DNA of 64,000 nt, taken from assembly GCA_021323225.1 (NCBI GenBank), contig JAJTCH010000001.1:147408-211407 (forward strand), read 5' to 3'. This stretch comes from Rickettsiaceae bacterium. Lineage in GTDB: Bacteria; Pseudomonadota; Alphaproteobacteria; Rickettsiales; UBA1997. Within the stretch, counting starts at the first letter, position 1, and the number at the start of each line of letters is the position of its first letter. Made by a program: the position numbers and the translations under genes. The notes below the pieces were generated by a model. It was not told the origin of the DNA, ran no database searches, and saw only the letters and a program-made list of their open reading frames with translations. Positions 25,486 through 26,747 of the stretch are shown in pieces.

Positions 25486-26037
25486 CTAAGCAACAAAATA
25501 AACACTATCATTTTTTATCACGCTAGCCTTTTTTAATTCCTTCAAGGCGCTGCGTATTGCCCAGCGGGGGATGGGTGGAGCTTCATCATCTATTTTATTT
25601 TTCAGATCATTATATTTTTTTAGCTCTAAAAGCGCCTGGTCCTCATCCATTTTTCCTATTTCAATTTCATAAAATATTCTTATCTCAGTTTCCAAAGCAT
25701 TATATTTATTACCGGTAACATGATAAGAAGCGGCGAGCTTATTGGGGTTGATGAAAGTTATAATTGCCGATAATCCGGCAACAATAATTGAAATTATCCC
25801 GGAAATAATATTGTGATAATCAAATTGTGAAAATGCTGCGGTACTGGCAACTGCAGAGAGAAGACCGGTTATAATGCCAGTCCAAAAATAAAATTTGCCG
25901 CCGTGATGGCTGGCAACAAAAAGGCCGCGTGCGGCGTAAAAACAGGCTTGCTGAATTCTTCTTGCCTCTTCAATAATCTTACTTTTTTCATTCTTCTCGT
26001 TATTTTTGGAATGGGTTTTATCGCTGTTTTTATTCAT
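25486..26037 (-). CDS. SLATT-like two-TM protein
   Basis: The architecture is helix (RIQQACFYAARGLF), TM1 (FYFWTGIITGLLSAVASTAAF), TM2 (IISGIISIIVAGLSAIITFI), then NPNKLAASYHVTGNKYNALETEIRIF and APPIPRWAIRSA. This matches my memory of SLATT_5/DUF4231-type proteins. It is not verified by a search. Confidence 0.5.
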   Translation of the reverse strand: MNKNSDKTHSKNNEKNEKSKIIEEARRIQQACFYAARGLFVASHHGGKFYFWTGIITGLLSAVASTAAFSQFDYHNIISGIISIIVAGLSAIITFINPNKLAASYHVTGNKYNALETEIRIFYEIEIGKMDEDQALLELKKYNDLKNKIDDEAPPIPRWAIRSALKELKKASVIKNDSVYFVA

Positions 26038-26044
26038 AGCTTTA

Positions 26045-26335
26045 TCAAATGCCCGCCGCCTTTTTCAAAGAATCGATAATCAAATTTGCAATGCGATTAA
26101 TCTCTTGCGCGGCAATAATCTCATCAGCATATTCCGCCTGTTTTTTTAAATCCGACAAATCCCCGATTAGCTCATCCATTTCATCCGGCGTCATTTTTCC
26201 CGCCTTAACTGCGGCGGTATAATCAAAAATCTTATGGACAATCTCTTCAAAAACCCGGTTTCGATGACGCTTCCACGGGCTTAGTTTTTTTAGCAATTCA
26301 TCAATTTTCTCAAAATTATTCTTTTTATTCGGCAT
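26045..26335 (-). CDS. Small helical hypothetical protein (96 aa)
   Basis: It overlaps the upstream lipoprotein gene by 11 nt and ends 7 nt before the SLATT-like gene. I recognise no family. Confidence 0.45.
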   Translation of the reverse strand: MPNKKNNFEKIDELLKKLSPWKRHRNRVFEEIVHKIFDYTAAVKAGKMTPDEMDELIGDLSDLKKQAEYADEIIAAQEINRIANLIIDSLKKAAGI

Positions 26336-26747
26336 GTTTTTTCTCTCCCACGGATTGTCTTAATATATCAAACATTAGTTCCAGATTTTTAGTTTTTTCA
26401 CGGCAATAAGTTTTGCTGATTTTTTTATGGTTCAGCCTGGAATCAAGCTCGCTAACATTTTGCTCGATCAACTCAATTTGAGAAATAATCGGCTCGTTAT
26501 ATTCAAGCCCTTTGCTGTATAAATCCAACACTTTAAGGCGATGATTAATCTCATCAATTTTACCGCGAAAATCTTTTATAGGACGATCACAAAATTCCTC
26601 CGCTTCACTAGCTAAAACCTGAAGCTCCACAACCTGTTGATATTCATTATTGTCGTAAGTTGGAATCCGGCCCAGAATGCCGCTAGTTAAAGCATTACAA
26701 GAAGAGAGGAAAAAAATTAACAAGGTTATTTTGATATGTCTCATCAC
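26325..26747 (-). CDS. Lipoprotein with predicted coiled-coil, hypothetical
   Basis: Good lipobox LIFFLSSC. The rest is helical and charged. It is the first gene of the three-gene minus-strand operon. Confidence 0.5.
   Translation of the reverse strand: MMRHIKITLLIFFLSSCNALTSGILGRIPTYDNNEYQQVVELQVLASEAEEFCDRPIKDFRGKIDEINHRLKVLDLYSKGLEYNEPIISQIELIEQNVSELDSRLNHKKISKTYCREKTKNLELMFDILRQSVGEKKHAE

Follow-up and report, generated by a model that had tools for sequence, protein, structure and literature searches.

Within a stretch of 64,000 nucleotides (nt) from the genome assembly GCA_021323225.1 of a Rickettsiaceae bacterium (contig JAJTCH010000001.1, positions 147,408 to 211,407 of the forward strand; hereafter the window), three genes on the minus strand encode a lipoprotein (26325..26747), a helical protein of 96 residues, here called p96 (26045..26335), and a membrane protein of 183 residues (25486..26037), and this triad may represent a hybrid membrane-lesion module. 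The family of the last protein, SLATT_4, is already known, while the apparent novelty, as judged from sequence comparison, lies in partners of a kind new to SLATT effectors, which form an undescribed gene pair that also occurs in phage lysis cassettes. We tentatively propose, with somewhat less than even confidence, that a SLATT pore without a cyclase is here gated by this phage-derived pair, which would act on either side of the inner membrane much as antiholins control a holin, and that this serves abortive infection or controlled lysis. The tight packing of the genes had been pointed out previously in a sequence-only reading and agrees with the coordinates of the open reading frames (ORFs), as the lipoprotein and p96 genes overlap by 11 nt (26325-26335) and a gap of 7 nt (26038-26044) separates the p96 gene from the SLATT gene. 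A Shine-Dalgarno-like GGGAGAG precedes the p96 start.

Sequence profiles identify the 183-residue protein as a bona fide SLATT_4 effector of the predicted pore type. It had earlier been called a SLATT-like protein with two transmembrane (TM) helices, and this notion is borne out by a score of 98.6 bits against the NCBIfam model NF033632 (SLATT_4; cut-off 55, profile positions 1-152 of 154) and by a best PADLOC match to PDLC00712, a 2TM effector of the cyclic oligonucleotide-based antiphage signalling system (CBASS), with an E-value (E) of 1.1e-34. Profile libraries are however divided on the protein, which lies above the cut-off in NCBIfam and PADLOC, whereas the Pfam models SLATT_1, SLATT_4 and SLATT_5 match below threshold only (PF18186 with 18.4 against a gathering score of 27); the PADLOC RTasSLATT models score far under the CBASS 2TM models. 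The layout is that of a SLATT protein, with an N-terminal extension rich in lysine and asparagine, TM1 at approximately residues 50-70, a loop of sequence SQFDYHN, TM2 at approximately residues 77-96 and a helical C-terminal region, where it should be mentioned that a strict-threshold hydropathy scan flags only TM2 and that TM1 was assigned by alignment. The motifs NPNKLAASYHVTGNKYNALETEIRIF and APPIPRWAIRSA are present and align with conserved SLATT_4 columns, and an alignment with 15 homologues shows that the window protein keeps E24, R27, A64, D73, Y112, L115, R120, F122 and A164, and indeed every nearly invariant column of that alignment, including the aspartate (D73) of the loop between the TM helices. 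The possibility that the protein is a divergent holin was considered and rejected, since hhalign gives a probability of 0.8% against phrog_3427-type holins and 1.4% against the 2-TM protein of the phage contig L124 described below.

The SLATT_4 2TM effector is reportedly a component of type I CBASS, the pairing of CD-NTase/SMODS with SLATT being ascribed to Burroughs and co-workers in 2015. A lactococcal plasmid system is an example of type I CBASS with a SLATT_4 effector (PMC11381338), and it is from this clade that the window SLATT derives according to its sequence. The closest proteins among 5.8 billion sequences are 37-51% identical to it, the SMODS-linked nearest relatives show 43-52% identity, and SMODS lies directly 5' of SLATT in six of the seven nearest metagenome lineages. 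Among the loci with readable context, the cyclase, of approximately 287 residues, lies 6-12 nt upstream of SLATT in L002, L003, L005, L006, L100, L101 and L102 and is found approximately 220 nt upstream in contig P0008, and it is likewise directly upstream in three of four SLATT_4 loci of the Rickettsiales (G252, G085 and G158, but not G066). This recurrent position of SMODS is what places the window effector in the type I CBASS clade. In a tree, a long stem of 1.18 substitutions per site leads to the window SLATT lineage, whose neighbour is a compact SMODS-linked cluster with branches of 0.04-0.3. This stem, taken together with the present constraint on the protein (see below), agrees with the protein having adapted to a new partner and not with decay. 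The C-terminal motif ARKGIEEGEA.YKVD of the SMODS-linked cluster has been lost in the window SLATT and in its relative on contig L017, which is discussed below. These two proteins also have in common an N-terminal tail rich in lysine and asparagine of 13-20 extra residues (SLATT residues 1-20, window 25978-26037) that the SMODS-linked homologues are without. SLATT_4 proteins of any kind occur in only 7 of 400 genomes of the order, the window SLATT itself is found in none of the genomes of 60 relatives, and a search of genome contigs with the SLATT protein for related loci gave no match.

The window locus has none of the enzymes usually coupled to SLATT, as the sequence-only reading had also maintained. 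Neither SMODS, TIR, reverse transcriptase (RT) nor SLOG was found by Pfam, NCBIfam and PADLOC in the genes from 19 to 31 kb of the window, tblastn of positions 25000-27900 returned only noise for an SMODS remnant (best E 0.83, over 10 residues), and the whole 1.59-Mb genome gives no SMODS match at E <= 1, so that a cyclase elsewhere in the genome was rejected as well. The notion that the two upstream ORFs are themselves a frameshifted or decayed cyclase was likewise abandoned, considering that hhalign probabilities are 0.2% for p96 and 0.1% for the lipoprotein, that both genes are under purifying selection, and that tblastn finds noise only. Conversely, the ORFs of 96-100 residues upstream of SMODS in L005 and L006 are not relatives of p96, since reading of their sequence reveals a GIY-YIG-like protein instead. 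Two further arrangements of SLATT_4 were noted during this survey. In G066, which belongs to the same order, the housekeeping GTPase gene obg ends 12 nt before a cyclase-less SLATT_4 gene, and SMODS is not found directly upstream (G066:C3, L113:2926-4491), and in L004 (2538-5294) a SLATT_4 homologue without SMODS is found beside a divergent DNA cytosine methylase, followed by a protein of 126 residues with a C-terminal TM segment.

The lipoprotein and p96 belong together in what is, judging from the loci collected here, a conserved, translationally coupled and previously undescribed gene pair. We define the family as a lipobox lipoprotein of 124-140 residues with the motif (F/Y)D.NEY followed by a helical protein of 69-96 residues whose gene overlaps the lipoprotein stop, a description that fits the window pair. 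Scans for the pair used hidden Markov models (HMMs) built in this analysis and covered 19 loci, approximately 13 of them distinct, and the ORF of the p96 family overlaps the lipoprotein stop in all 19, by 4 nt in general and by 11 nt in the window lineage. Searches with the lipoprotein profile and with sequences found the pair on ten IMG/VR viral contigs, one of them from a 329-kb phage, while word-based searches recovered only the relatives on L017. The pair family is absent from the 400 genomes of the order apart from a single lipoprotein homologue in G020 that is dealt with below; neither the window lipoprotein nor that of L130 has a match in 50,697 isolate phage records (INPHARED), and no match was obtained when genome contigs were searched with the lipoprotein alignment or viral contigs with the L118 lipoprotein. 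From its sequence context we conclude that the pair is of phage origin. This also speaks against regarding the two proteins as dedicated triggers of SLATT, as had been implied previously, for they make up a self-standing two-gene module that in uncultured phages mostly occurs without SLATT. As read from translated ORFs, one pair-bearing viral contig encodes a PstS-like phosphate-binding protein (L120:2-820), and related pair contigs encode PhoH, a deaminase and a PD-(D/E)XK-like nuclease; these genes indicate that the pair is carried by aquatic phages with auxiliary metabolic genes.

In five uncultured phage lineages (contigs L118, L124, L125, L130 and L131) the pair is embedded in a lysis cassette with the order endolysin, inner-membrane spanin (i-spanin) with an N-terminal TM segment, overlapped outer-membrane spanin (o-spanin) lipoprotein, pair lipoprotein, p96 and hole-former. 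The endolysin matches phrog_894 or phrog_181 (E 1e-46 and 6e-76), the spanins are Rz-like, and the hole-former, which begins approximately 5-50 nt after p96, is a holin of the phrog_3427 / GTA_holin_3TM type (PF11351) in four of the five cassettes (L118, L125, L130, L131) and an unrelated 2-TM protein in L124. One candidate function for the lipoprotein, that of o-spanin, was rejected, since each of the five cassettes contains an overlapped gene for the o-spanin in addition, which extends 4 nt into the lipoprotein gene in four cases and overlaps it by approximately 20 nt in L118; in these cassettes the lipoprotein is thus not the spanin. In the window and in L017 the gene in the position of the holin, after p96, is SLATT, and comparing the phage order of lipoprotein, p96 and holin with the window order of lipoprotein, p96 and SLATT it follows that SLATT occupies the holin slot. 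The question whether the triad might be a known phage lysis module therefore has a mixed answer, in that the pair does sit in lysis cassettes but is no known or annotated component of them. No homologue of the endolysins, spanins or holins of these cassettes is found by tblastn in the window or in the genome, and a prophage at the locus was rejected as no integrase or structural-gene domain occurs in the scanned window ORFs and PHROGs are uninformative for the triad and for a neighbouring protein of 232 residues. Two peculiarities of the cassettes may be added. The hole-formers of L124 (3108-3566), L125 (3108-3488) and L131 (3126-3530) end in a common C-terminal tail, (D/E)FDLK, despite the L124 2-TM protein being unrelated to the other two, where a partner common to them may dock. 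In the distant contigs L118 (5654-7064) and L130 (3985-5399), one of which is 329 kb, the gene after the holin is DnaJ-like and the next one resembles the N-terminal part of ClpA, chaperone genes being unusual immediately behind a lysis cassette.

Outside the window, the complete triad is found on a 2-kb contig from the Joint Genome Institute (L017), where the 11-nt overlap is kept, and the co-occurrence that the sequence-only reading would have to see elsewhere is hereby documented in a second lineage. Between window and L017, identity and the ratio of nonsynonymous to synonymous substitution rates (dN/dS) are 70% and 0.156 for the lipoprotein, 78% and 0.094 for p96 and 86% and 0.085 for SLATT, the L017 copy of which is cut by the contig end, at synonymous distances (dS) of approximately 0.9-1.3, and all three genes are thus under purifying selection in the two lineages. 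Nucleotide similarity between L017 and the window genome sets in approximately 25 nt into the lipoprotein gene, and nothing in the window genome corresponds to the 864 nt that L017 has upstream, with a divergent methyltransferase-like gene; it follows that the triad is a block with a defined 5' edge that resides in different surroundings. The contig is furthermore informative about the lipoprotein start, since the L017 start is equivalent to the ATG at 26744, making a protein of 139 residues more likely than the one of 140 residues that would begin at the GTG at 26747.

That neither partner of SLATT can be placed in a family, as had been stated before, is confirmed inasmuch as no informative Pfam, PHROG or PDB match and no curated family was found for the lipoprotein or p96, and none of Pfam, NCBIfam, PADLOC and Foldseek gives a recognisable enzyme fold in either. 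The lipoprotein has the lipobox FLSSC and two conserved cysteines (C52 and C114), and in an AlphaFold2 (AF2) model its mature part is folded into four helices, at residues 31-138, with a predicted local distance difference test score (pLDDT) of approximately 90. The earlier description of a coiled-coil lipoprotein with lipobox LSSC is therefore correct as to the lipobox but not as to the fold, which is modelled as a compact four-helix bundle. An aspartate at position +2 is found neither here nor in any other lipoprotein of the family, which by the sorting rule of E. coli suggests that the protein is anchored in the outer membrane. It has no PHROG match at E <= 0.01, and its best Foldseek match in the PDB (E 0.03) is among generic four-helix bundles. 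p96 is of the cytoplasmic type without signal peptide, and the helical nature attributed to it earlier is supported by an AF2 model (pLDDT 83) of a four-helix bundle with helices at residues 7-23, 27-45, 50-68 and 73-94. It too resembles only generic four-helix bundles in the PDB (best Foldseek match E 0.4), and its two PHROG matches are weak and to families without assigned function. Searching 1.84 billion representative proteins with the p96 profile in HMMER, we found small proteins of 82-91 residues (E 3e-11 to 7e-4), and L18, G46, D51, E52, L56, D59 and I79 are nearly invariant in the family. The centre of the protein (residues 44-60), which reads G-K-(M/L)-(T/S)-x-(D/E)-E-(F/M/Y)-x-x-L, resembles a SHOCT-type motif, and this accounts for strong HMMER matches to SHOCT-repeat and poly-HAMP proteins; these long matches of 1,100-5,200 residues were not accepted as family members, the similarity being one of motif and composition only.

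Among known systems, the window locus has most obviously to be compared with type I CBASS, with which it has in common the effector family, the SMODS-linked clade, the conserved residues, the topology and the tight spacing to the upstream gene. However, the cyclase that defines CBASS is absent from both locus and genome, neither of the two upstream gene products, the lipoprotein and the four-helix protein, is related to SMODS, and the effector is strongly diverged, as is evident from the long stem and the loss of the C-terminal motif. SLATT proteins linked to RT (DRT10/UG17 and DRT3, where DRT denotes defence-associated reverse transcriptase), TIR or SLOG are similar in the close coupling of the effector gene to that of a partner encoded upstream, but they are of SLATT_5, SLATT_6 or other subfamilies with enzymatic partners such as RT or TIR, and no RT, TIR or SLOG gene adjoins the window SLATT. 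The phage lysis cassettes resemble the window in that the pair is embedded, with start/stop overlaps, in five uncultured phage lineages and that the window keeps the pair together with a membrane-lesion protein; they differ in that the window has neither endolysin nor spanins and has the holin replaced by the non-homologous SLATT, and the pair is no described lysis component and is absent from the isolate phage records. A functional precedent is offered by phage T4, where holin T is controlled by the periplasmic antiholin RI and the cytoplasmic antiholin RIII of 82 residues (PMC8385771, PMC11413866). As in the window, a small periplasmic and a small cytoplasmic helical protein are here associated with a hole-forming membrane protein, and T4 thereby sets a precedent for control of a lesion from two sides and for the sensing of envelope events, although the periplasmic partner in the window is a lipoprotein and not a signal-peptide protein, and although the T4 antiholin genes are not contiguous with the holin gene. 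In the literature SLATT is regarded as a toxin that is predicted to form pores, with its mode of activation yet to be settled (bioRxiv 10.64898/2026.04.29.721553), and we came across no report in which SLATT has such non-enzymatic proteins as partners or in which the lipoprotein-p96 pair is described.

On these grounds we imagine that in phages the pair would act on the neighbouring hole-former from both faces of the inner membrane, periplasmic and cytoplasmic, and set the time at which it fires, in the way RI and RIII do with holin T. In the window bacterium it would have been rewired so as to keep the SLATT pore in check and then set it free, with gating at the protein level taking the place of the cyclic-nucleotide signal that was lost. 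Contact with SLATT would be made by p96, at the N- and C-terminal helices on the cytoplasmic side, the lipoprotein would provide input from the envelope, and the output would be permeabilisation of the inner membrane. An envelope-linked arrangement of trigger and effector, as hinted at in the sequence-only reading, is in this sense possible from gene context and has its analogy in holins under periplasmic and cytoplasmic antiholins. The likeliest use of such a triad would be abortive infection or superinfection exclusion, with controlled lysis or release being less likely. An unlikely, more far-reaching version holds that the pair is a device of general use for gating membrane-lesion proteins from two sides, periplasm and cytoplasm, by which phages time their holins and the bacterium fires SLATT upon an envelope event such as ejection of a phage genome.

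A number of observations weigh against gating by the pair. The coupling of the pair to SLATT, and indeed to holins, rests on gene order, and the association with SLATT is seen in one lineage only, consisting of the window and a relative with an 86%-identical SLATT. In approximately half of the lineages with the pair no membrane protein comes next, the following gene being a deaminase in L120 and L121, PhoH in L126-L129 and a converging gene in L116 and L119. The periplasmic loop of SLATT is approximately 6 residues and leaves little surface for a periplasmic partner, and no informative PHROG match relates the sequences of the pair to T4 RI and RIII. In G020, from another genus of the family, a lipoprotein homologue occurs alone, with no trace of p96 and no SLATT (G020:C8, L016:7720-10498); it is 36% identical, keeps both cysteines and is encoded downstream of an ABC-F ATPase gene and beside a small EF-hand lipoprotein. 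Finally, the cyclase-less SLATT_4 proteins of G066 and L004 are found without the pair, and an orphan SLATT may accordingly need no such partner. Several of these points can be read as signs of a chance mosaic, in which a CBASS effector orphaned by loss of its cyclase during genome reduction has ended up behind an unrelated phage-derived pair with which it shares a transcript but no function, acting alone or on a signal from elsewhere. Orphan SLATT_4 in G066 and L004, the occurrence of the pair without SLATT in every phage locus, the solitary lipoprotein of G020 and the location in an accessory mosaic region absent from congeners would all agree with this. We nevertheless regard such a coincidence as rather unlikely, since the triad, sharply bounded on its 5' side and preceded by a different flank, has been kept as a block across a dS of approximately 1, since SLATT is strongly constrained (dN/dS 0.085) after a burst of change, since an ungated pore-former should come at a cost to the cell, since the 7-nt spacing resembles the tight coupling of p96 and holin, and since the genome has no SMODS gene from which a signal could come.

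It could also be imagined that only p96 matters and serves as a cytoplasmic antitoxin binding the SLATT toxin, such that loss or degradation of p96 under stress or infection frees the pore, whereas the lipoprotein is a bystander from the phage cassette. p96 is indeed a small acidic helical protein encoded 7 nt upstream of a membrane toxin, it is better conserved than the lipoprotein by both identity and dN/dS, and its central motif resembles that of SHOCT and VbhA-type small helical domains. However, the fact that p96 is always coupled to the lipoprotein, even where no toxin comes next, makes a toxin-antitoxin system improbable, and neither PADLOC nor Pfam reports a match to an antitoxin family, while Foldseek yields nothing more specific than four-helix bundles. 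Still less probable is a remnant or domesticated lysis or release device, i.e. the residue of a prophage cassette in which SLATT is a replacement holin used for controlled lysis, for the formation of vesicles or for protein release in the manner of holin-dependent secretion, and not for defence. The native place of the pair is certainly the lysis operon, directly before the holin; SLATT-like proteins do exist in phages, the only PHROG match of the window SLATT being phrog_36926 (E 1.3e-5, function unassigned), and secreted or effector-like proteins are encoded nearby (a YopJ-like protein, an autotransporter and an sPLA2-like protein). Such a device is on the other hand in poor agreement with the lack of endolysin, spanin and holin homologues in the genome and of other phage genes adjoining the triad, and SLATT is unrelated to holins (hhalign probabilities of approximately 1%) and has its sequence ancestry in CBASS. 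We therefore continue to favour, if tentatively, gating of the SLATT pore by the lipoprotein and p96.

Were the more far-reaching version, that of a general gating device, to be true, SLATT effectors could be fired by protein partners in the absence of any nucleotide second messenger, and parts would be interchangeable between the control of holins and the effectors of abortive infection. SLATT proteins, which are predicted to form pores, are widespread as effectors in CBASS, DRT and Thoeris-like systems, and a constrained cyclase-less SLATT_4 with two non-enzymatic proteins makes a simple three-gene system for asking whether protein partners alone can gate the pore. In uncultured phages, the placement of the pair between spanins and holin in several lineages makes it a candidate for a new class of lysis regulators, one that no INPHARED isolate carries. 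The exchange of a holin for a defence effector in the same slot would furthermore exemplify how parts move between phage lysis and bacterial suicide effectors.

As for the setting of the locus, the 204-bp intergenic region 5' of the lipoprotein gene (26748..26951, minus strand) is the probable promoter of the three-gene unit. It contains three sigma-70-like matches on the minus strand (26945-26864), where it should be noted that the number of such matches over the scanned region is not above that in shuffled sequence. Downstream of the triad, 231 bp past the SLATT gene and on the same strand, is the TPR gene (23509-25254, 581 residues) that had been reported there previously, and nothing was found that ties its product to the triad. 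The triad is further flanked by a ferritin-like gene (21554-22738) and a membrane metallophosphatase gene (27831-28982), and since these flanking genes (window 21554-28982) are missing from all six congeners, the triad lies in a species-specific, mosaic accessory stretch. A soluble metallophosphatase is also found near the pair in the phage-like contig L116, which may be coincidence. The genome itself is a 1.59-Mb assembly of 97.7% completeness, and the nearest relatives of one of its housekeeping proteins are from freshwater metagenome-assembled genomes labelled 'Rickettsiales bacterium'.

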